Position numbers and translations under genes: made by a program. From the UHGV virus genome UHGV-0091736: a DNA stretch of 64,000 nucleotides; one strand, written 5' to 3'. Source of the DNA: a virus. Shown here piece after piece: positions 3,630 to 46,039 of this stretch; within the stretch, counting starts at the first letter, position 1, and every line of letters starts with the position of its first letter. The notes beneath the pieces are model-generated. The model was not told the DNA's origin and searched no databases. It saw nothing but the letters and a program-made list of their open reading frames with translations.

Positions 3630-5348
3630 TTAAGCTTTCTTTTCCATTGCTTTAACAATCGCCTTACAGAAACCAGAACGAACAATATCATCTGATTCAC
3701 CATCTACAATCTCAGCAAACTCATACAGATCATGTTCATCAATAAAGTTAGTAGCCCAAGTAAGACCACTCTCACGACCACGCATATCATGCTGGTTAGT
3801 ATCACCCATGCAGAACAGCTGAGAGGTTTCTCCCAATCGAGTCATGATTGAGAAGGCTTCATCTTTAGTTGTGTTCTGGAACTCATCCACGATAACAATG
3901 GCATCATTGAAAGAGCGACCACGGAGATATTCCAGAGGTACAAATTCAATGTTACCATTTCCGATTTGGCATTCATAGAACCCCTTACCATATCGCTGAG
4001 TAATAACATCAATGATAGGCATCAGGTATGGTTCAAACTTCTCACGCATCCCCCCCGGAAGTAACCCAAGAGAGTTACCCATGCCGACCGAAGGGCGACT
4101 CAGAATGATCTTCTGAATCTTACCACTCTTCAGTGCATCAATAACTGTGGAAGTGATTACAAAGGTCTTACCACAGTTACCTGTCACGAAAATGTTATCA
4201 TCTCGACGGAGCAACAGAGCACCTGTTGAGGTTGTAAAGCAATATTTAAAACCATCCTCCGTCTTCATCTTTGTGATCACAGCTTTCCCAGATTGTGGGT
4301 TGTTTGGGGTAATACTGATATGTGTCTGTTTAGAGAAATAAACACGATACTCTAGAGATTTACGAGTATATCCACCATACTCCCGACCAACTCTGTCGTA
4401 AGTTATGATAGATGATTTGTAACCACACTGCATTCCTACAAACTGGATATAGTCTGCATCATCTTTATCGGAAGTAAAGAAAGGTGGTAGTCTATTTCCT
4501 TGTAGGGCAAAACCCCCGTCCCAGAATTTAATCTCATCAAAGATGATTTTAGCATCACTCTTGTTACACAAAGGCCAGTCTTTATACCTTTTAGTCGCAC
4601 CTAGAAGAGAGAAAGATATTACATGAAACCCTGTATCATCTGACTTTTCTGAGTAATCTAAATGGAGAGTATCCAATAACTCTTTGAGTCGAGAAATCTT
4701 CCTCTCTTTCTTTAATCTGAAGACGAATCGCGAGGTGGACTCTGTTTCCAAGTGGGCATCAGCCTTGATGGCAACATGAAGACGTAATTCAGGTTCAGAT
4801 AGACCTAAACTTTTCCCTGAAACAAAGTTGGATGTAGTTTTAATTAGACCCTCAAACCCTATCTTCTTCTTGTGGTGCCTTGAAAGAAGATCAGATACCT
4901 TGATTTTGTTCGCTTTGTCTTTATCTCCCTTACGATAATAAACGACATTATGGTCATCACATAACGCCTGAGATATCCCACGGTATGTTTTAAACAAGTT
5001 CAACTCTTTACACTCTTGTTTAATATAAGCTACAGGTTTTTCTAAATGAGACTCTCCTGTGGTTAAGTTTACTGCTGTTATTAAATCACCTTCCACATAG
5101 TCAGAAATCTTTTTCCATCCAAACTCTGAGAGAAACTCGGTATCCTTATCAACACAGCCCGCAGGAGCGTCTGTGAACACAACTTGTTTAGTCTTAATAG
5201 CATTGAGTAGCTCAGACTGAAACTGGTTCTGAGGGACTACAGGCTTTGCTAAAACCACCTCTTCATACTCTCGCTTACCCTTACGAGTAACAAGTGCTTC
5301 CCGACGAAGGTCTTTCCGTGATTCTTTCCTTGATTGACGACGACTCAT
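3630..5348 (-). CDS. phoH: PhoH-like ATPase interrupted by an intein
   Basis: 572 aa; P-loop reconstituted as DAPAG + CGKT across the insert; PhoH motifs LSRPSVGMGNSLGLLPGG, VIVDEFQNTT, MGDTNQHD. Confidence 0.8.
   Translation of the reverse strand: MSRRQSRKESRKDLRREALVTRKGKREYEEVVLAKPVVPQNQFQSELLNAIKTKQVVFTDAPAGCVDKDTEFLSEFGWKKISDYVEGDLITAVNLTTGESHLEKPVAYIKQECKELNLFKTYRGISQALCDDHNVVYYRKGDKDKANKIKVSDLLSRHHKKKIGFEGLIKTTSNFVSGKSLGLSEPELRLHVAIKADAHLETESTSRFVFRLKKERKISRLKELLDTLHLDYSEKSDDTGFHVISFSLLGATKRYKDWPLCNKSDAKIIFDEIKFWDGGFALQGNRLPPFFTSDKDDADYIQFVGMQCGYKSSIITYDRVGREYGGYTRKSLEYRVYFSKQTHISITPNNPQSGKAVITKMKTEDGFKYCFTTSTGALLLRRDDNIFVTGNCGKTFVITSTVIDALKSGKIQKIILSRPSVGMGNSLGLLPGGMREKFEPYLMPIIDVITQRYGKGFYECQIGNGNIEFVPLEYLRGRSFNDAIVIVDEFQNTTKDEAFSIMTRLGETSQLFCMGDTNQHDMRGRESGLTWATNFIDEHDLYEFAEIVDGESDDIVRSGFCKAIVKAMEKKA
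4176..5156 (-). mobile_element. intein (327 aa) inside PhoH Walker A motif
   Basis: Begins C-VDKDTEF (block A like), TGESH (block B TxxH), ends FVTGN followed by +1 Cys of CGKT; in frame, no stops. Confidence 0.6.
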
Positions 5349-5530
5349 TTACGCTCTCCAATTTCTTCGTAATGACACTCAGTGGTTAAACAATCTTTAC
5401 AGATTGCTGTGTAAACCCTGACGTTAGTAAATCGTTTGTTCTTCCCTTTGGTTGGAGAGCCTTTGGCAAGCTCTCTGATAACCTTGTTACTTAAATGAAG
5501 GTTTGTTCCTTCACATTTAGAGCACTTCAT
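5345..5530 (-). CDS. small zinc-ribbon protein
   Basis: 61 aa with CSKC...CKDC pairs. Confidence 0.45.
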   Translation of the reverse strand: MKCSKCEGTNLHLSNKVIRELAKGSPTKGKNKRFTNVRVYTAICKDCLTTECHYEEIGERK

Positions 5531-5846
5531 GGTTCATATCTTTATGAATCCTGTAAACAGCTGTCGCCATACAAGCAACAGCCTCATTGTGTGGGAGGTG
5601 CATCCCTGTAGAACCATCCCAATCTTTGAACTCATTGTCAAAGACTCCAGTAGGCTCTGGATACAGAGCTTGCAGCTCCACTAGATCATTAGCAACTTGT
5701 TGCCATTTATCATCAGACCAGATAGGGTCATCCAACCAGTAATACAAATAGGAATGGATGATCAATTGCCTTCTGTGCCGATTAATTACTTCAGCGGGAC
5801 TTATTTCACTTCCATTTGAAGTCCTAAATGTATTACTGTCAATCAT
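5517..5846 (-). CDS. hypothetical protein with NAD-ligase Ia-domain-like motif
   Basis: 109 aa; HSYLYYWLDDPIWSDDKWQQV...LQALYPE resembles N-terminal Ia domain of NAD-dependent DNA ligases. Confidence 0.5.
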   Translation of the reverse strand: MIDSNTFRTSNGSEISPAEVINRHRRQLIIHSYLYYWLDDPIWSDDKWQQVANDLVELQALYPEPTGVFDNEFKDWDGSTGMHLPHNEAVACMATAVYRIHKDMNHEVL

Positions 5847-6061
5847 TTCACAACCTTAAATTTGAATGTTGTTGGGTGGTAATAGTGCAATCTATTGATA
5901 ATGTGCTTATTCTCATGATAGGTAATACAAGCATGGCACATGGAATGAGTTAAACCAGTTACAGAATTAGGTTTAAAGTTGACAATAGGCTTCTCTTTCT
6001 TACAGAAGCTACACACTTTATGTGTCATCAGTTCTCCAAAGTTTTCTTCAGAGCTGCCCAT
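5843..6061 (-). CDS. small zinc-finger protein
   Basis: 72 aa; CSFC...CHAC. Confidence 0.45.
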   Translation of the reverse strand: MGSSEENFGELMTHKVCSFCKKEKPIVNFKPNSVTGLTHSMCHACITYHENKHIINRLHYYHPTTFKFKVVK

Positions 6062-6684
6062 GAGATTGGGTAGAGCTTAGCCATCTCTTCATCCAGAGAT
6101 TGGGCAAACACTCGAACTTCATATTGAGCGTGAGAGGAGAGTCGCTGACGACACAACTCAAACCAGCCATACAAAGAACCGGTCCACACCCACTCAGTGA
6201 TCATTCCCTGAGGAAGAACAAATCGAGCTTGCTCTGGTGCAATAAATTCAATCAACTTGTCATATGCTGCTAGAGAAGCTTCATATGCATCATTAATCAG
6301 CATTAATGCTTCAGCTCGCTCTCCGTCAATGAGTTGAATCCCTGAACCTGCATGGAGGTCCGAAGGTCTCGCAAAAATCTCTTTAGGGATGAAGACTTCA
6401 ACTGCTCCATCTTTATACCGCCGGGACATTTCGTTCCACGAGAATCCAACCTGATGCTTGCCCAACTGTCTCGCAATTGCGATAGGTGCTTTGCATCGGA
6501 AACTGACTTGCGGGTGTCGGAATGGGGTAACATGCTTCTCTCTTGCGAGGAAGTTGATGAGACGTTCATCACGTTCATTTAAATCACCTTCACGGGTTAC
6601 GCCAAAGGAAACTCGAGCTGCGTTTACTACGCTACGATCACTTCCCATAGCTTCGATTAATGTTGCTTGTAGTTGTTCATTCAT
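6028..6684 (-). CDS. thyX: flavin-dependent thymidylate synthase ThyX
   Basis: 218 aa; KHQVGFSWNEMSRRY fits the ThyX RHRxxSxxxxSxRY signature region. Confidence 0.65.
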   Translation of the reverse strand: MNEQLQATLIEAMGSDRSVVNAARVSFGVTREGDLNERDERLINFLAREKHVTPFRHPQVSFRCKAPIAIARQLGKHQVGFSWNEMSRRYKDGAVEVFIPKEIFARPSDLHAGSGIQLIDGERAEALMLINDAYEASLAAYDKLIEFIAPEQARFVLPQGMITEWVWTGSLYGWFELCRQRLSSHAQYEVRVFAQSLDEEMAKLYPISWAALKKTLEN

Positions 6685-17122: not shown

Positions 17123-19153
17123 TTAACCTCTATTCAATGAACATTTAGGAGAATTACAATAAACTTGATTCATAGAACCAAGCGTACAACTTTCAGCATC
17201 GCGCCACGGAATCTGCTTAAAACACTCTGAGCAGTATCCGAGGGTTGACCACATGGCTTTGGTGAAGTCAGTGCTTCGGTTTCCGTCGAAGCTGACAACA
17301 GTTTTGCGGAGAGCTGTTCGTGATTCAGGAAACACACCTGCTTTCTCAGCAGGTTCCTCCTTTTTTGGCTTAGTTGAGATTGCAAAAATACTGTTGCTAC
17401 GTTTCTCAACATAAGCATCAACAACATCCTCCAGAGTGATGCCTGTTTGTTTCGCTGAGGAAGGTAATACAGTCATACGACCAATCATTTCTTCAGTTAC
17501 ACGTAAAGCAAACTCAGGACGACGGGTGTTTGTTGTATCTGTTGCTTTAATCCAGACATAACCATCTTTGATCGTAGCATTAGATACTTTCTTCTTTACT
17601 TCTACAGCGCAGACTTTACAGATATCTTCACCACGAAGACGACTAAGTTCATCATCGAACTCATTCTCTGTTTTAACCTCACCACAGATTTCACAAACAC
17701 CAATAGGAGTCTCCTCCTCTTCTTCCTCTTTAGGTTTAGTCAAACTTTCCAGACACTCTGGATGCCAGTAGCATTGATATGCGAAGACTGCTTTAGGTGC
17801 ATCCTTCCAATCAATGTGCTTGTCACAACCACCACAATCACCATGAGAGTGTGCTTCCCAGAATTTACGAGTGATAGTAACGCCATTCTTGTTGACGAAA
17901 CTATCATTCATATCAAAAGGGATATCATCATCAAAATCAGCAGTAGTTGACTCAGGCTCCTTTTTCTCCAGAGATGGGTCAACAAAACGACCTGCTGTGA
18001 TCACTAAACGAACCATAGCATTGACTTCGGAGATGCAGGATACTGTCCCACGGTAAACAATTTTAGGGTCTTTCAGGGCATCCTGATAGGCCTTAATGTC
18101 TACGTTATGAACATCACCTTCGATATACTCTTGAGATTTCTCATCGTAGATATAACCAATCATCTTACCACGAGAAGGGACAGCACCAGAAGTTGCATAA
18201 GGAACAAACTCATGCGGAGTGATTTCCACAGTCATGTCGCGGCGAATATCAATGTTTCGATCGCTTGCGATTTTGTTTTGACTTACCACTGCGTTTCTTC
18301 GACGAACATCTGCCGCCGTCACCCCCGGCTTCGTGTCGTAAGGATTGCTTGTACTGCTTTTTGAGGAGCTTTGATAGTTGCTTTGGCTGTAGTTGTTCGA
18401 GTAGTAACTGGCCCAACGATTGACTACCGTAAAAACCGGAAGCTCATGGGCGACCTCTTCAACCAGTGTCATGCTGTTATTTGACATGTCAAAGATGTAC
18501 TCTGTACCAACCTTACATTCAAAATGCTCATCAATGCGGTTCTTGTGAGACTTCGAACGCTTCAGAATCCACATCAGCATATCTTCTTCAGAAGCACCAA
18601 ACCAATCTTTATTACAACGTGCGAGATGGAAAGGACGTTCTTCGTTACGAATAATATGAAGCCGGTTATCAGAAGCATCATGCCAGATTAAAGTGAAAGC
18701 ACCATCCAACTTTTGAATAGTCTCTGCTGCACCAATGGTGTTAATAGAGTGGCAGATGTTCTCGCTGTCTACCTCGAAGTTTTTACTGTCAGGTAACAGG
18801 TCTTGGTCAATCAAGGTTCCGTTATGAACCAGAGTGATGTTACCGTGTTGGAAAGGATGGGCGTTCTTGGCGTTAACTGCACCTTTCGTTGCATGACGGC
18901 TGTGACCAACAATCCATGAAGGTGCTACAGTGTAAGATGTTTCACCAGTGGTATGCTTCTTATACTCATCTTGTAGGATGAATGCGAAAGAAGGAAGGGC
19001 TTCTTTATAAGTGAAGACCTCCTTAGTGCTCTTACGCTGACCAAAGATACCAGAAGAATGTTGTCCTCGGAATACCCCAGCATAAAAGAGTTGGTTGAAT
19101 ACGTCTAAATCGGTGCTTGACAGATTACCGCCAGCTAATACGATGCCACAAAT
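17123..19153 (-). CDS. class II (Ntn) glutamine amidotransferase domain protein with Cys-rich zinc-ribbon C-terminal region; non-ATG start
   Basis: Open frame upstream of track ORF encodes CGIVLAGG...RGQHSSGI...GHSRHATKG...HPF...LVHNG; conserved Cys preceded by ATT with SD AGGTGGA 7 nt upstream and an in-frame TAG. Confidence 0.6.
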   Translation of the reverse strand: MCGIVLAGGNLSSTDLDVFNQLFYAGVFRGQHSSGIFGQRKSTKEVFTYKEALPSFAFILQDEYKKHTTGETSYTVAPSWIVGHSRHATKGAVNAKNAHPFQHGNITLVHNGTLIDQDLLPDSKNFEVDSENICHSINTIGAAETIQKLDGAFTLIWHDASDNRLHIIRNEERPFHLARCNKDWFGASEEDMLMWILKRSKSHKNRIDEHFECKVGTEYIFDMSNNSMTLVEEVAHELPVFTVVNRWASYYSNNYSQSNYQSSSKSSTSNPYDTKPGVTAADVRRRNAVVSQNKIASDRNIDIRRDMTVEITPHEFVPYATSGAVPSRGKMIGYIYDEKSQEYIEGDVHNVDIKAYQDALKDPKIVYRGTVSCISEVNAMVRLVITAGRFVDPSLEKKEPESTTADFDDDIPFDMNDSFVNKNGVTITRKFWEAHSHGDCGGCDKHIDWKDAPKAVFAYQCYWHPECLESLTKPKEEEEEETPIGVCEICGEVKTENEFDDELSRLRGEDICKVCAVEVKKKVSNATIKDGYVWIKATDTTNTRRPEFALRVTEEMIGRMTVLPSSAKQTGITLEDVVDAYVEKRSNSIFAISTKPKKEEPAEKAGVFPESRTALRKTVVSFDGNRSTDFTKAMWSTLGYCSECFKQIPWRDAESCTLGSMNQVYCNSPKCSLNRG

Positions 19154-19232
19154 TTTCTAATCCACCTGAAGGGTAAACCCTTTCATCTAATTAACCTTTA
19201 AATTGTGCCCCTTTACCAGAGGCACCCATTGA

Positions 19233-20336
19233 TTACAGCGCTTGTTCTAACTGGTTTTCCAAATGGTCTGGAATGTACCCTGTGATATTGCTATCACTGT
19301 GACCTGACTCACGCAGCAAGTCAAAAATAGCACGGACACGTTGTTCTGGAGCGTGTCTTACTTGAGACAGGTCAGTTGTACTAAGCATAACCAGAATCTC
19401 TTGGTACAAGCTGTTAGCATTCCCTCGAACATATCCAAGGAATCCATAGAAGTCTGGAATAAGACGTAAGTCAACAAGAGCTTCTCCGTTTGGGTTGGTT
19501 CGTCGTAAACGAATACGACCAGACTGCTCTACTTCATGAGAACGGCAATACAAAACATCACGGGCCATACAATATCCTGAATGCAAATCCAACTCATCCA
19601 GATTGTAATCCAGAGGGAGATAAGGGAGCATTGGAGTGAATCGTACAGTATTTAAATGCTCAACAAACTGATCATTGCTCATATCTGCGTTATCTAAAGC
19701 CAGCTTCTTCAACATCAAGAAACGGTTAACCAAATTGAGAAGTTGACCACGTTTCCACTTAGGCTCACTGATACGGAACTCAATCGAACCATATTGGGCA
19801 AGTGGCAGAAGGTTCAGAGATGTGTATTTATCCCATGAACGAACCAGACGGTTGAAGAATTCTTCACCATCGTAGTTAAATGCGTCAGAGGCATTCATCA
19901 CCTGTGCTTGTACCACTGCAAACGCAGGGCAGAAGTTGCTACGGTAACGATGGTAGCCCGAACACTTGAACAACATCTTTTCATAGAAGGTCCAAGCGAG
20001 AATGGTTTTCTTGAGGATATTACTATCAGCATCCCTCATATCCATATGAACGTGAGTAGAGCAACGCCAAGTCCCCTCGGCGTGCGATTCAGCTACTGCT
20101 TCACTCAGGTTGTTGATAGCGTCTAACAACTCCTGTCCATTGTAAGGCCGTGAACATACCATTTCACAACCATTACGCAGGGAACCATCCTCTGTACAAT
20201 CCCACATATCTGCTTCGATATGATCGGAACCTTCGAGTTCAAGTTCAATACCGACACCGCACTGAAGTGCAATTGAACTATGCTCCTCAGTTAAACGACC
20301 TTCTCGATATCCAAAAGTTTGCGCTACAGTTGTCAT
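19233..20336 (-). CDS. COOH-NH2 ligase / amidoligase-like (glutamine synthetase / GCS2-like fold)
   Basis: 367 aa; N-terminal GVGIELELEG resembles carboxylate-amine ligase GxExE strand. Confidence 0.45.
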   Translation of the reverse strand: MTTVAQTFGYREGRLTEEHSSIALQCGVGIELELEGSDHIEADMWDCTEDGSLRNGCEMVCSRPYNGQELLDAINNLSEAVAESHAEGTWRCSTHVHMDMRDADSNILKKTILAWTFYEKMLFKCSGYHRYRSNFCPAFAVVQAQVMNASDAFNYDGEEFFNRLVRSWDKYTSLNLLPLAQYGSIEFRISEPKWKRGQLLNLVNRFLMLKKLALDNADMSNDQFVEHLNTVRFTPMLPYLPLDYNLDELDLHSGYCMARDVLYCRSHEVEQSGRIRLRRTNPNGEALVDLRLIPDFYGFLGYVRGNANSLYQEILVMLSTTDLSQVRHAPEQRVRAIFDLLRESGHSDSNITGYIPDHLENQLEQAL

Positions 20337-20950
20337 AACGAATCCACCAACGTAATATTATAATTGCTAAGGTTTTCAGAAATGTGATGAAAGTGTTCCA
20401 GAAGTCGCATCGGTTGCTGACCGTAAGAGTCACGAGGTGCTTCCAGATCTACTTGCCCTACCAGTGCACCTTTATAATGCACCTTACCATCAGTAGGGTT
20501 GATGTAAATATAACGAGTAACCAATCCCTCGAATTCAGGATTGAACAGACTGTAAACCATCTCCCCGGAGATAGCACGACCAACACCCGGAGCATTTCGA
20601 ATCTTGTTACCCATCAAACCCTTTGCTCTCTGACGAACAGGGTTAATATGAGTCCAACTTACAGTGTTACCGTTATGGAACAGATAACCAACATCAGGTG
20701 ATTCAAGAATCAAGGTTGGGTCGAACACTGGAATATTCATCGTAGTGTTTCGAAGGTGCCCTTGCTCATTCTTGTACCACTGCTCTACAACAAAATACAG
20801 AGCCTGCTCTGCTTCGTGAGAGAAGTCATCGCTGCGGAAGTTACCGCTCTGCTCAACACCAATCACAAAACATGGAAGGTTGATATTACCTGCTCGTTTA
20901 GCAATCCATGTACCATTATAGTAATGAGAAAAATCAGCTACTAAGCTCAC
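20333..20950 (-). CDS. hypothetical protein (within ligase cluster)
   Basis: 205 aa ORF, 4-nt overlap with upstream gene. Confidence 0.5.
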   Translation of the reverse strand: MSLVADFSHYYNGTWIAKRAGNINLPCFVIGVEQSGNFRSDDFSHEAEQALYFVVEQWYKNEQGHLRNTTMNIPVFDPTLILESPDVGYLFHNGNTVSWTHINPVRQRAKGLMGNKIRNAPGVGRAISGEMVYSLFNPEFEGLVTRYIYINPTDGKVHYKGALVGQVDLEAPRDSYGQQPMRLLEHFHHISENLSNYNITLVDSL

Positions 20951-20959
20951 GATAACCTC

Positions 20960-21766
20960 TTATGCTACCTGAAGGAGTTTGATCTGCTGGTCCGCTTCTT
21001 TAACGTTGTTGCCGTTAATGATTTCATGAAGCTTCTCAATCGGAAGGCGAGAGTGCAATGCCATCAGAGTGGACATATCACACTGCTGAACAACCTTGTC
21101 AACCTGATCGTAAACAAACTTACGGTTTTCACGATCGCTAATCCAGAAGTTAGACAGCGAACGATATTCGATACCATAGTCTTTATAACGGATTGCAGAT
21201 GCTTTACCGTAGAGTTCTTTACGGCGAGTATCTTTGTCCATAATTACTGCTGGGAGTGATAGGAAGTAGTCACACAGCACACCAAGCATCATCTGAGTTT
21301 GCAGAGTGATATCCAAAGCCCCAACGACACCAAGATGTACGTGACCACCGGCAGTACGAAGTCCCTTATTCTGAGAAGTTGGGGATGGGTTTTTCTGACC
21401 AGTGAAAGCGTTGAAGTCAGGAGTGCATCCAAAGATGAACGCTGATTCATTAAAGGTCTTCATCTCTTCTTCGGTGAAGATGTGAGAGCTGACACCCGGA
21501 GCTGTTTCCATATCCAGTTTGTTCAGGACTTTATTGGTGAGATCAATACCACGTTGCATGTTATCATTAAACGCTTCAAAACCGCTCTGTGGGTCAATAT
21601 CAAACTCAGCCAATACGTTGTCCTCTTGAAGACGAACATCCTTAGCCAGAGCGATCTTATCGTCCTTAGAGCAGCCTAGAAGACCGGCTACAGAGGTGAT
21701 GATGCCGTTGCTAGTACGAACGAAGAGCTCAGGGTCGCTGCCTATTAAGAATTTGCGCTTAGTCAT
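20960..21766 (-). CDS. possible second amidoligase-like protein
   Basis: 268 aa; N-terminal LIGSDPELF motif; weak. Confidence 0.3.
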   Translation of the reverse strand: MTKRKFLIGSDPELFVRTSNGIITSVAGLLGCSKDDKIALAKDVRLQEDNVLAEFDIDPQSGFEAFNDNMQRGIDLTNKVLNKLDMETAPGVSSHIFTEEEMKTFNESAFIFGCTPDFNAFTGQKNPSPTSQNKGLRTAGGHVHLGVVGALDITLQTQMMLGVLCDYFLSLPAVIMDKDTRRKELYGKASAIRYKDYGIEYRSLSNFWISDRENRKFVYDQVDKVVQQCDMSTLMALHSRLPIEKLHEIINGNNVKEADQQIKLLQVA

Positions 21767-42464: not shown

Positions 42465-44708
42465 ATGGCTAAGCAAAAATATAGTGAAGAGGTGTTGGAC
42501 GAGTTACGTGTTGACCTTCAACGTCGTTTTAATTACGCTCAAGGCTACGTGGACATGGCTGTTAAGGGCTATGCTCGTGAAGCTTGGGAATATTTCTATG
42601 GTAACTTACCTGCACCAGTAACTGCTGGCAGCTCTAGTTGGGTAGATCGTACTGTTTGGGAATCTGTTAACGGTACATTGCAAGATATTATTAACGTATT
42701 CTGTTCTGGTGATGAAGCAGTTACTTTCGTAGCTGACAACCAACAGGATTCTGATGCTGCTGATGTAGCAACTAAATTAGTCAACCAAATTCTTCTGCGT
42801 GACAATCCGGGATACAATATTATCTCTTCTGCTGCACAAGAATGTCTGGTTACTCGTAACTCTTTTATCAAATATTATTGGGATGAGCACACTTCTACTC
42901 AAACTGAAGAAGCTGAAGGTGTACCACCGGAAGCATTGGCTGCATATGTTCAGGGATTAGAAGCTGGTGGACTCAAGAATCTGGAAATCTTCACTGAAGA
43001 TAATGAAGACGGTACAGTAGATGTTAAAGTTACTTATGAACAAACTGTTAAACGTGTGAAAGTTGAATATGTTCCTTCAGAGCAAATCTTTGTTGATGAA
43101 CATGCTACCTCTTTTGCAGATGCACAATACTTCTGTCATCGTGTACGTCGTTCTAAAGAAGATCTGGTTGCTATGGGCTTCCCTAAAGATGAGATTGAAG
43201 CATTCAACGACTGGACAGACACGATGGACACCACTCAATCTACAGTTGCTTGGTCTCGTACTGACTGGCGTCAGGATATTGATGCTGATATTGGTACAGA
43301 TACCGAAGATATCGCTTCTATGGTTTGGGTTTATGAGCACTACATCCGTACTGGTGTTCTAGATAAGAATAAAGAGTCTAAACTCTATCAGGTTATTCAA
43401 GCTGGTGAGCATATCCTTCACACTGAAGAAGTAACTCACATTCCGTTTGTAACCTTCTGCCCGTATCCGATTCCGGGTTCCTTCTATGGTCAATCGGTCT
43501 ATGACATTACGAAAGATATTCAAGATTTACGTACCGCGTTAGTTCGTGGTTATATTGATAACGTCAACAATGCTAACTATGGTCGATACAAAGCTCTTGT
43601 TGGTGCATACGATCGTCGCTCTCTGCTTGATAACCGTCCCGGTGGAGTGGTTGAAATGGAACGTCAGGACGCTATTGACCTGTTCCCATACCATAACCTA
43701 CCTCAAGGTATTGACGGCCTCCTAGGCATGTCTGAGGAGCTTAAAGAGACACGTACAGGTGTAACCAAACTAGGCATGGGTATCAACCCTGATGTGTTTA
43801 AGAATGATAACGCTTATGCAACCGTAGGCTTGATGATGAATGCTGCACAGAACCGTCTCCGTATGGTATGTCGTAACATTGCTCACAATGGTATGGTTGA
43901 ATTGATGCGTGGTATTTACAGTCTTATCAGAGAAAACGGTGAAGTTCCTATTGAGGTACAAACACCTCGTGGTATGGTTCAGGTTAACCCTAAACAATTA
44001 CCAGCTCGTCATAATCTTCAAGTTGTTGTAGCTATCTCTCCTAATGAGAAAGCAGAACGTGCACAGAAACTGATTAGCTTGAAACAGCTGATTGCAGCAG
44101 ATGCACAGTTAGCACCTCTCTTTGGTTTGGAGCAAGATCGTTACATGACTGCACAGATCTTTGAGTTGATGGGTATTAAGGACACTCACAAATACCTTCT
44201 GCCTCTGGAACAGTATCAGCCTCCAGAACCTTCTCCGATGGAAATCCTCCAGCTCGAGATGACTAAAGCACAGGTTGAGAACGTACAGGCTTCTTCTCAG
44301 AAGATGATTGCTGATGCATTCGACCAACGTGAACGTACTACATTTGAACAGCAGAAAGCTGCGGATGAATTGAGTCTGCGTCAGGAAGAGTTGCAGTTCA
44401 AGCAAGAAAATGCAGCAGATGTTATGACTCTGGAAAACCGTAAAGAAGATAACAGCGCTACTCTGGAACAAGCTAAGCACAAGTTAGCTCTTATGCAACA
44501 GCAGGTCCGTCAATATGAATCTGTACTGAAAGAGTTGCAGATGGTTATGGAACATCAGGTTGACCAAGAGAAGCTTAATGAACAATCACGCATTCAAAAC
44601 AAGACTTTGGAACTCCAAAAGAAAGAAGCTAATGTAACTAAGAAAGAGCAACAAGCTTCTCTCAAAGATTCACGGATTCCAGGCAAACGTCTTGGAAGTA
44701 AAAAGTAA
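42465..44708 (+). CDS. portal protein (positional and size-based)
   Basis: 747 aa directly after terminase; C-terminal coiled-coil; SD GAGGGAGAG. Confidence 0.55.
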   Translation: MAKQKYSEEVLDELRVDLQRRFNYAQGYVDMAVKGYAREAWEYFYGNLPAPVTAGSSSWVDRTVWESVNGTLQDIINVFCSGDEAVTFVADNQQDSDAADVATKLVNQILLRDNPGYNIISSAAQECLVTRNSFIKYYWDEHTSTQTEEAEGVPPEALAAYVQGLEAGGLKNLEIFTEDNEDGTVDVKVTYEQTVKRVKVEYVPSEQIFVDEHATSFADAQYFCHRVRRSKEDLVAMGFPKDEIEAFNDWTDTMDTTQSTVAWSRTDWRQDIDADIGTDTEDIASMVWVYEHYIRTGVLDKNKESKLYQVIQAGEHILHTEEVTHIPFVTFCPYPIPGSFYGQSVYDITKDIQDLRTALVRGYIDNVNNANYGRYKALVGAYDRRSLLDNRPGGVVEMERQDAIDLFPYHNLPQGIDGLLGMSEELKETRTGVTKLGMGINPDVFKNDNAYATVGLMMNAAQNRLRMVCRNIAHNGMVELMRGIYSLIRENGEVPIEVQTPRGMVQVNPKQLPARHNLQVVVAISPNEKAERAQKLISLKQLIAADAQLAPLFGLEQDRYMTAQIFELMGIKDTHKYLLPLEQYQPPEPSPMEILQLEMTKAQVENVQASSQKMIADAFDQRERTTFEQQKAADELSLRQEELQFKQENAADVMTLENRKEDNSATLEQAKHKLALMQQQVRQYESVLKELQMVMEHQVDQEKLNEQSRIQNKTLELQKKEANVTKKEQQASLKDSRIPGKRLGSKK

Positions 44709-44717
44709 GGACGTCGA

Positions 44718-44954
44718 ATGAACATTAGGCATCAATTCAATAAAGAGCACGCCGCCGCTTTGGCGGCTCTCAATCTTAACGGCAGTCTTGACGCAGCATT
44801 AGAGGCATTGAAAGAAAGACTCATGACAGAGATAGTTCAAACAGAACCTCATGAGAATAAGAAACGCGAAGATTGTTATCAAAAGTATAAAATGGTGGGT
44901 AGCTTAAAAGAGGTCATAAAAGCTGCTATCAATAGTGCAGGAGATGTTTCATAA
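44718..44954 (+). CDS. hypothetical protein
   Basis: 78 aa helical ORF. Confidence 0.45.
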   Translation: MNIRHQFNKEHAAALAALNLNGSLDAALEALKERLMTEIVQTEPHENKKREDCYQKYKMVGSLKEVIKAAINSAGDVS

Positions 44955-46039
44955 TGCCACAAGATAATTATATTGACCCGAACGATTTTAAATCTTTCCT
45001 CCAACTGGATGACCTGAAAGGTTCTTTCAAAGAAGAACTCGGTCGATTAGAATCTGAACAAGAACCAGAAGTGGACATTGACGATGAGTTCCCGGAAAAA
45101 GACGGTGACGATTTCGACTTTGATACCGACCTTCTCGGTGAAAGCGATGAGCTTAAGTTCGAAGATGAAGATGGTTGGGAAGATCGTGAAGAGGAAGGCG
45201 AAGTCGAAGAAGATGAGGAAGAATTTGATGAATCAGATGAAAACTCTGAAGCAGATGAGGACGACTCAAGCGATGCAGGATATGAAGATGATTCTGCTGA
45301 CGGTGAAGGTGAAGTCTTTGATGTAGACTACGAAACCGTTATCACCCTTCCTGATGGACGTGAGATGACTATTGAAGAACTTTCTAATGGCTATCTTACT
45401 GGTGCTGATATGACAGAACGAGAATCAACTCTTCAGCGTCATATGGAAGCATTTGAGGAACGTGTAGTAGGTTTGAAGGATGTATTAGAACTAGCGTCTT
45501 TAGAAGCAGACCGAGTAATTGAAGATTATAACGGTTTTGATTGGGACAAGCTTGCAGTAGAAGATCCTCAAGCATATGTTGAAAACAAACGTTTCCTAGA
45601 GAAGTACACAGCTCGCCGTCAACAGCTTGAACAGGCTCAGGTCCGTGTTAAGCAGGAAGCAGCAGCTAAAGAACAGGAAGCTTTCCAAGCCAAGAGCATT
45701 GAATGTGTTAATATTCTGAAACGTGAGATTCCAAATTGGGATGAAAACTTATATCAAAACTTAATGCAATACGCAATTGACTTAGGTGCTACTGAAGAAG
45801 AAGTATTGAAGGAAAACCGTCCGTCTATTTTCCTAGCTCTCCATAAAGCATACCAATTTGATAAAGGTAAGCAACAGGTGATGGCTAAGATTAAACGTCC
45901 CGGTGCTCCACGCAAGGTTGTGAAGTCTGATGCTGCAAAGTCTCGCACTTCCAATAAGCCCGACAACGCTAAGGTTGCCAAGGCATTCGCAGAGGGTCGC
46001 GTTAGTCACGAAGACGCATTCAAATTCCTCGTAGATTAA
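44954..46039 (+). CDS. putative scaffolding protein
   Basis: 361 aa; long Asp/Glu-rich stretch then coiled-coil; sits between portal and capsid genes. Confidence 0.5.
   Translation: MPQDNYIDPNDFKSFLQLDDLKGSFKEELGRLESEQEPEVDIDDEFPEKDGDDFDFDTDLLGESDELKFEDEDGWEDREEEGEVEEDEEEFDESDENSEADEDDSSDAGYEDDSADGEGEVFDVDYETVITLPDGREMTIEELSNGYLTGADMTERESTLQRHMEAFEERVVGLKDVLELASLEADRVIEDYNGFDWDKLAVEDPQAYVENKRFLEKYTARRQQLEQAQVRVKQEAAAKEQEAFQAKSIECVNILKREIPNWDENLYQNLMQYAIDLGATEEEVLKENRPSIFLALHKAYQFDKGKQQVMAKIKRPGAPRKVVKSDAAKSRTSNKPDNAKVAKAFAEGRVSHEDAFKFLVD

Follow-up and report, generated by a model that had tools for sequence, protein, structure and literature searches.

The locus at positions 5517..5846 (minus strand) of UHGV virus genome UHGV-0091736 raises the question of what a phage does with the NAD+-recognition domain of a DNA ligase when that domain is encoded by itself. 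The stretch analyzed here, hereafter called the window, is 64,000 nucleotides (nt) long. The open reading frame (ORF) at this locus, taken from the ORF list, is complete from ATG to stop and encodes a stand-alone protein of 109 amino acids (aa), Nlig-Ia, which resembles domain Ia of the NAD-dependent DNA ligase LigA. Its fold, its solo architecture, the purifying selection acting on its gene and the lack of a detectable ligase partner in cis were established computationally. For its function we tentatively favor the explanation that it is a non-catalytic solo copy of LigA domain Ia which binds NAD+ or nicotinamide mononucleotide (NMN) and acts in or for a phage replication apparatus apparently dependent on the host LigA.

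The gene is preceded by a Shine-Dalgarno-like TAAGGT (5853..5858, minus strand, read from the sequence) located 7 nt 5' of the ATG, and its start codon (5846) overlaps the stop codon of a small upstream ORF as ATGA. The protein matches Pfam PF22745 ("Nlig-Ia, DNA ligase-like N-terminal NAD+-binding domain") with 121.7 bits (E=2.1e-35; curated gathering cut-off 27 bits) over residues 16-102, which spans profile positions 1-90 of 92, and it matches PHROG 6466 with E=2e-43. A first-pass annotation of the same DNA had seen here a stand-alone small protein like the NAD-binding Ia domain of LigA, and had named a profile search against the ligase N-terminal domain family and a structure prediction as ways of checking this. 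The profile search returned the PF22745 match, the structure prediction gave a confident model with LigA as its best structural match, and both agree with the fold searches. As a single sequence the protein has marginal similarity to solved LigA chains (E=0.05-0.15), yet the alignments are correctly placed. A profile of 64 homologues aligned to residues 3-53 of Escherichia coli LigA in exact register (E=4e-4 to 7e-4), and LigA chains were the majority of the 28 PDB matches listed for this profile. When residues 1-75 of E. coli LigA were used as a tblastn query against the window, exactly the Nlig-Ia ORF was picked (5655-5774, E=4.6e-4).

The alignment-based AlphaFold2 model (pLDDT 91.5, pTM 0.83) has helices at residues 17-37, 45-61, 70-73 and 88-106 and contains the Ia-type helical hairpin fold. 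All structural results are from this model, as the model predicted from the single sequence (pLDDT 48.8) was unusable. All 25 of the best Foldseek matches in the PDB were LigA structures, many of them with about 47 aligned columns at 0.6-1.0 Å. The 109-aa protein is a homologue of the LigA NAD-binding Ia domain. With that domain (E. coli LigA 1-69; PDB 2OWO, 5TT5 and 1TAE) it has in common the helix-loop-helix hairpin, which superimposes at 0.6-1.0 Å over about 47 residues, and the motif h-x-Y-L-Y-[YH]-x(8)-D-x-x-[YWF], in which the equivalents of Tyr22, Tyr/His23, Asp32 and the aromatic residue at position 35 are kept. It differs from LigA in having no attached nucleotidyltransferase (NT), OB, Zn, HhH or BRCT domain, in the replacement of Asp36 by Gln, and in carrying about 45 additional C-terminal residues with an invariant motif of their own. 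A Pfam match to Imm41 (21.2 bits, below the cut-off of 26.9) and sub-threshold PDB matches to STN1 and UTP20 were judged to be noise from helical composition.

Residues 31-49 (HSYLYYWLDDPIWSDDKWQ; 5700..5756, minus strand) correspond by homology to the motif with which LigA domain Ia binds NMN, according to both profile and single-sequence alignments. The peptide quoted by the first-pass annotation was found in this ORF, and the YYxxDxPxxSDxxYD pattern proposed for it is borne out as YY-WL-D-D-P-IW-SD-DK, except that the final YD is instead WQ (YLYYWLDDPIWSDDKWQ). Tyr22, His23, Asp32, Tyr35 and Asp36 of LigA are what we take to be the five NMN/NAD+-contact positions, and Sriskanda and Shuman are said to have found in 2002 that these five residues are essential for the reaction with NAD+. 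Four of the five are kept in the window protein, as Tyr35, Tyr36, Asp45 and Trp48, and the fifth, LigA Asp36, corresponds to Gln49. Residue counts over 262 family members gave Tyr at the equivalents of Tyr22 and His23 in 260 members each, Asp at the equivalent of Asp32 in 261, and an aromatic residue at that of Tyr35 (Trp in 238, Phe in 16, Tyr in 7); the Asp36 equivalent is Gln in 206, Asp in 37 and another residue in about 18. Trp-Gln occupies the LigA 35-36 positions in the sampled E. coli and Erwinia phages and in nearly all retrieved IMG/VR copies, and Tyr/Phe-Asp is kept there in the sampled phages of Gram-positive hosts. The nicotinamide ring is stacked between two tyrosines in a pocket made by the Ia and NT domains of LigA (PMC7470946). 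Judged by the kept NMN-contact positions, an NAD/NMN-binding module is the best supported of the three options that the first-pass annotation had offered, and the conservation of these residues suggests that Nlig-Ia could bind such a ligand. The second option, a ligase regulator, is possible.

The most conserved block of the family lies outside this motif, at residues 73-85 (FKDWDGSTGMHLP; 5592..5630, minus strand), where the family alignment shows a C-terminal motif that sets the solo family apart: F73-x-D-W76-D-G78-S-T80-G81-M-H-L84-P85. All 262 members have F73, and 260 of them have G81. No LigA counterpart was detected for the second half of the window protein, because the profile alignment with LigA stops at about position 56. 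The block is recognizable in every sampled lineage, phages of Gram-positive hosts included, except for a divergent group of metagenome-assembled genomes of SAR324 and Deltaproteobacteria. The contigs of that group (L104-L107, binned as bacterial) encode a variant solo subfamily that keeps HSYLYY...D..[YF]D and has ...EASGYSIRxYP... in place of the C-terminal DGSTG..LP. Positions 48 and 76 covary only suggestively and with confounding by phylogeny, and this was not used as evidence.

The window belongs to a phiEco32-like E. coli podophage (Gordonclarkvirinae): the 6 kb around the gene share 92-95% identity with phages of this group such as EcoN5, NJ01, 172-1 and SU7, and phages myPSH2311, KM01 and EK5 encode the window protein with 100% identity. 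About 99 records match this part of the window by DNA sequence, and orthologues at 60% identity or more occur in at least 94 phage records, which makes Nlig-Ia a core gene of these phages. When six Gordonclarkvirinae orthologues were compared in pairs, dN/dS came to 0.06-0.22, and values of dS extended to saturation. The gene is under strong purifying selection and is thus not a remnant.

Start codon and length are conserved among the homologues. The 120 homologues listed from a search of 5.8 billion proteins are all short (69-189 aa), and an exhaustive profile search returned 1081 clusters, defined at 50% identity, for a threshold of E<=1e-3 and 589 for E<=1e-10, nearly all consisting of proteins of 75-190 aa. 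Solo copies with a confirmed PF22745 match are found in an Arthrobacter phage (96 aa), a Clostridium phage (127 aa), an Erwinia jumbo phage (131 aa) and Streptococcus phage Dp-1 (gp16, 137 aa), and further solo copies in Rhodococcus phage Trina (108 aa) and an Enterococcus phage (104 aa). The dN/dS values, the 1081 clusters of similar size and the solo copies in unrelated phages rule out the third option of the first-pass annotation, a gene-fragment remnant. No second Pfam domain was found in the longer members (161-321 aa); one metagenomic protein (P0218, 321 aa) has two to three tandem Nlig-Ia domains in one polypeptide. The family is almost absent from cellular genomes: a pattern scan of 185,579 bacterial and archaeal species genomes found seven loci only, each a short solo ORF, which agrees with the published statement on this domain that the solo form is essentially viral.

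Solo Nlig-Ia proteins were described computationally in 81 phages by Iyer, Burroughs, Anantharaman & Aravind 2022 (Viruses 14:1977, PMC9503650), whose passages on the domain name ECBP2_0056 as an example and state that the ligand-binding residues are conserved. The window protein is 76.7% identical to ECBP2_0056. Compared with the proteins as described in those passages, it belongs to the same family and has the same solo architecture and the same lack of detectable ligase catalytic genes, and nothing essential differs. Given this description and the prior Pfam entry, our finding is a correct rediscovery of a known family. The details that we did not find in the Nlig-Ia passages of that paper are the Asp36-to-Gln change, the C-terminal motif, the placement in replication modules and the fusion to a helicase, the last two of which are described below.

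The protein itself is not a ligase. The NCBIfam LigA equivalog models scored 15.9 and 13.6 bits on it against cut-offs of 369 and 444, with matches confined to model positions 3-46, and no adenylation (nucleotidyltransferase) domain, either PF01653 or another NT domain, was found in the 109 residues with Pfam. Nlig-Ia is the sole Pfam domain above cut-off, so the adenylation domain is lacking, as the first-pass annotation had said. Queries with residues 70-671 of E. coli LigA and with the T7 ATP-dependent ligase gave nothing better than E ~0.8 in any of three targets, namely the window, the SU7 genome (complete) and Arthrobacter phage Adolin; for the phage studied here this search covered the 64-kb window, and about 12 kb of its genome falls outside. 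The annotations of SU7 and Adolin list no ligase besides the small Ia gene, and Pfam and PHROG scans found no ligase among the unassigned large ORFs of the window. More widely, 80 of the 81 phages with solo Nlig-Ia are without any ligase catalytic module, according to the relevant passages of Iyer et al. 2022 (PMC9503650).

The phages of this group encode a primase/helicase, Pol A and a 5'-3' exonuclease (PMC9965538). With a primase/helicase, Pol A and separate exonucleases, and with no ligase catalytic gene detected either in the 64-kb window or in a relative whose genome is complete, they presumably depend on the host LigA. Proteins of 96-137 aa that consist of Nlig-Ia only are systematically labelled 'DNA ligase' or 'NAD-dependent DNA ligase' in GenBank, in records that span Gordonclarkvirinae, Arthrobacter, Clostridium, Rhodococcus and Streptococcus phages, and in the genome paper on phage YF01 the gene is entered as the ligase of that phage (PMC9965538). 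For this protein the label "NAD-dependent DNA ligase" is wrong, and it obscures the fact that these phages have yielded no ligase gene.

Within the window Nlig-Ia is part of a tightly packed co-directional string on the minus strand, consisting of ThyX, a 61-aa zinc-ribbon ORF, Nlig-Ia, a 61-aa Cys-rich ORF and PhoH, in which successive starts and stops overlap. The flavin-dependent thymidylate synthase ThyX lies upstream (6028..6684; Pfam Thy1, E=1.4e-43), and its stop overlaps the start of the zinc-ribbon ORF (5843..6028; PHROG 15951, E=2.5e-36, residues 12-72), whose likely start is M12 of a 72-aa ORF (5843-6061). Downstream, the Cys-rich ORF (CxxC...CxxC; 5345..5530; PHROG 14369, E=1e-45) shares 14 nt with the stop end of Nlig-Ia and an ATGA with the PhoH start. 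SU7 has this ORF with 98% conservation (record 44162-44344) but without annotation, and it could be a partner of Nlig-Ia or merely an unannotated small gene. The string ends with a PhoH-like ATPase carrying an intein-like insertion (3630..5348; Pfam PhoH, E=4.8e-50). A scan of the stretch from ThyX to the PhoH start detected neither a sigma-70-type promoter nor a terminator, a result of limited value because these phages use their own sigma factor. Also nearby in the window are genes for a dCTP deaminase, a 3'-5' exonuclease and a DNA polymerase, the last assigned from its syntenic position in SU7 and ECBP2. What separates ThyX from Nlig-Ia varies among relatives, with the zinc-ribbon ORF here and two unrelated small ORFs in SU7 (record 44823-45200), and the downstream Cys-rich ORF is conserved.

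Nlig-Ia recurs in replication or nucleotide-metabolism modules of other phages. The gene adjoins Pol I and primase/helicase in the Arthrobacter phage; in the Clostridium phage it is flanked by NrdD and NrdG and has a primase close by, and in Streptococcus phage Dp-1 it is flanked by RecA and the clamp loader. For IMG/VR, 80 loci were dereplicated into 49 groups and their co-directional neighbors were compared within 10 kb flanks. The T4 gp33-like late-transcription coactivator (1-3 kb downstream of Nlig-Ia) and a cell-wall hydrolase were each present in 16 of the 49 groups, the gp32 single-stranded DNA-binding protein (median 3.2 kb downstream) and DUF932 in 11 each, the gp59 helicase loader in 9, an SNase-type nuclease in 8 and ThyX in 7. 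On the strength of the gp33, gp59 and gp32 neighbors, many carriers are uncultured T4-like phages in which Nlig-Ia lies just upstream of that cluster; these environmental carriers are IMG/VR loci L024-L100. The surroundings of two metagenomic homologues were uninformative arrays of small unknown ORFs.

A tie to DNA transactions comes from a rare fusion, which was traced through a match in a viral structure library to a 541-aa Rhodococcus phage protein. In Rhodococcus phage ReqiPepy6, gp102 (L017:25168-26796, annotated 'DNA ligase') joins Nlig-Ia (PF22745, E=1.6e-32, residues 16-101, motif FRDFDGSTGFHLP) to a superfamily 2 DNA helicase of about 440 aa (PHROG 62, E=1.6e-63, residues 98-538). Its N-terminal 100 residues are the same solo-type domain as in the window, the C-terminal motif included, and it differs in having Phe-Asp at the LigA Tyr35-Asp36 positions, where the window protein has Trp-Gln. 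Helicases of the ReqiPepy6 type are common in actinophages without the Ia domain.

Taken step by step, the explanation that we favor runs as follows. The protein is predicted to fold as an Ia helical hairpin with two extra family-specific helices. By homology, it would bind the NMN half of NAD+, or free NMN, in a pocket formed by Tyr35, Tyr36, Asp45, Trp48 and Gln49, and the glycine-rich F-x-D-W-D-G-S-T-G-M-H-L-P loop may complete this ligand site, replacing the missing NT domain. It is incapable of ligation because it has no lysine-adenylation domain, and the phages presumably use host LigA for joining. In the last and weakest step, which draws on gene context, Nlig-Ia might couple NAD+ availability to the host-LigA-dependent joining of phage Okazaki fragments or, alternatively, hold a small pool of NAD+/NMN for that reaction. 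Gene context, the anticorrelation with ligase genes and the helicase fusion are what suggest a link to replication or to LigA. Since Nlig-Ia is a core gene of a replication/nucleotide-metabolism module, its output is most likely to DNA replication, and such a role seems more likely than that of a free-standing general NAD+ sponge.

Several points weigh against this explanation. Sequence similarity to LigA is limited to about 50 residues, and the prevailing Gln at the Asp36 equivalent could mean an altered ligand preference or weaker binding. No neighboring gene is universal across carriers, position in phage genomes is a weak guide to function, and the helicase fusion is found in only a handful of related phages (9 records with a coverage of the fused protein of at least 80%). 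The host LigA has its own tethered Ia domain, which makes the benefit of a copy in trans questionable. Finally, we found no experimental study of any Nlig-Ia member in the literature; the "ligase" of the EVADES preprint was considered as such evidence and rejected, being an unrelated ATP-dependent enzyme. Bacteria and phages have in NAD+ one of their main battlegrounds, and host LigA is presumably the sole ligase for phages without their own. As a widespread and strongly conserved family that has kept only the NAD+-recognition head of the enzyme, Nlig-Ia is therefore a good candidate for a link between NAD+ status and phage DNA replication.

Nearly as likely, and itself possible rather than probable, is a role independent of ligase as a sensor of NAD+ or a shield against host NADase defenses (Thoeris, DSR, SIR2 and similar), which is what Iyer et al. 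2022 (PMC9503650) propose for the domain. The conserved pocket residues and the lack of ligase modules in the carrier phages suit it, a LigA-derived NAD+ biosensor structure exists (PDB 8jyd), so that the fold can report NAD+, and depletion of NAD+ is, in the accounts drawn on here, commonly used against phages, which have several means of countering it. Among these countermeasures the NAD+ reconstitution pathways NARP1, NARP2 and NARP3 act on the same metabolite in the same arena, NAD+ in phage-host conflict. The likeness is one of functional analogy only, because those pathways, as described, consist of enzymes that rebuild NAD+ and have no sequence or fold relation to Nlig-Ia, which is without a catalytic domain. 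As a sensor, however, a single-domain protein of 109 aa has no output domain. The cellular NAD+ pool is millimolar, and stoichiometric shielding of such a pool is implausible. Nlig-Ia is moreover a core gene inside replication modules and not in variable anti-defense islands, and no NAD-salvage or ADP-ribose-processing gene is among the annotated recurrent neighbors in IMG/VR.

It is rather unlikely that the scaffold has been reused without a pyridine-nucleotide ligand, as a helical adaptor for a replication protein or DNA, or for another small molecule, with the 'pocket' residues kept for the sake of the structure or on some other account. In its favor, LigA has no counterpart of F..WDGSTGMHLP, the best-conserved block outside the hairpin, Asp36 is not conserved, and the helicase fusion would suit an adaptor or regulatory domain. 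Against this, the NMN-contact residues (two Tyr, one Asp and one aromatic) are near-invariant, which maintenance of the fold alone hardly explains.

Similarly speculative, and to be held with slightly less confidence still, is a bolder form of the replication-linked role in which solo Ia would be a trans-acting accessory by which host LigA is captured for the replisome of phages without a ligase. The protein might dock, NAD+-loaded, on the NT domain of LigA, or remove the inhibitory product NMN. Indirect hints of such capture are that solo Ia and phage ligase genes almost never co-occur, as far as the published survey passages and our own searches go, together with the siting in replication modules and the helicase fusion. 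If this were true, joining of phage Okazaki fragments could go on during a collapse of the host NAD+ pool, and it would be a new viral takeover of a host replication enzyme by means of a copy of that enzyme's own domain.

The opposite effect on LigA is improbable. A free Ia domain acting as antagonist would dock on the LigA NT domain, block adenylylation and halt host replication and repair; the NT domain is the only known partner surface of Ia, with which it forms the NAD+ pocket (PMC7470946), and Asp36-to-Gln in most members could yield a non-productive mimic. These phages need a ligase, however, and none of their own was found, so that inhibiting the one available to them would be self-defeating, and the members in phages of Gram-positive hosts retain the canonical Tyr/Phe-Asp pair. 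That the gene is a decaying 5' fragment of a former phage ligA or, as the labels on many orthologues and the YF01 genome paper (PMC9965538) have it, a genuine DNA ligase is refuted by the low dN/dS, by more than 1000 clusters in which length, start codon and C-terminal motif are conserved, and by the lack of an adenylation, OB, Zn, HhH or BRCT domain in the ORF or nearby.

Some further observations concern the genes around Nlig-Ia. The zinc-ribbon ORF (5843..6028) has weak HNH/EndoVII-like matches. Of the two small ORFs that SU7 has between ThyX and Nlig-Ia, one is a 43-aa Cys-rich ORF that is absent from the window and annotated 'NAD+ diphosphatase', a label that is probably a zinc-ribbon artefact and does not denote an enzyme. 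The PhoH-like ATPase has 572 aa here and 246 aa in SU7, and identity between the two is 98% on either side of an insertion of 326 residues (~4179-5156). This insertion splits the P-loop: it begins with Cys after APAG and ends with ...VTGN, and CGKTF follows. Judged from these boundary residues it bears the signature of an intein, and a homing endonuclease is probably part of it; neither the Hint nor the intein models of Pfam gave a match.

Farther along the minus strand, a 455-aa protein (9817-11184) matches PHROG 12715, 'nucleotidyltransferase', and shows a weak match to the head of poly(A) polymerase/CCA-adding enzymes (E=0.004). Its gene adjoins those for the dCTP deaminase and the 3'-5' exonuclease. 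The region ~15483-21766 (minus strand) holds the known peptide-ligase/amidoligase gene set of phiEco32-type phages, in which the ATP-grasp, glutamine amidotransferase and amidoligase genes were assigned by synteny with SU7 only and the phiEco32-type COOH-NH2 ligase PF14395 was identified from a scan of ORF 20960-21766.

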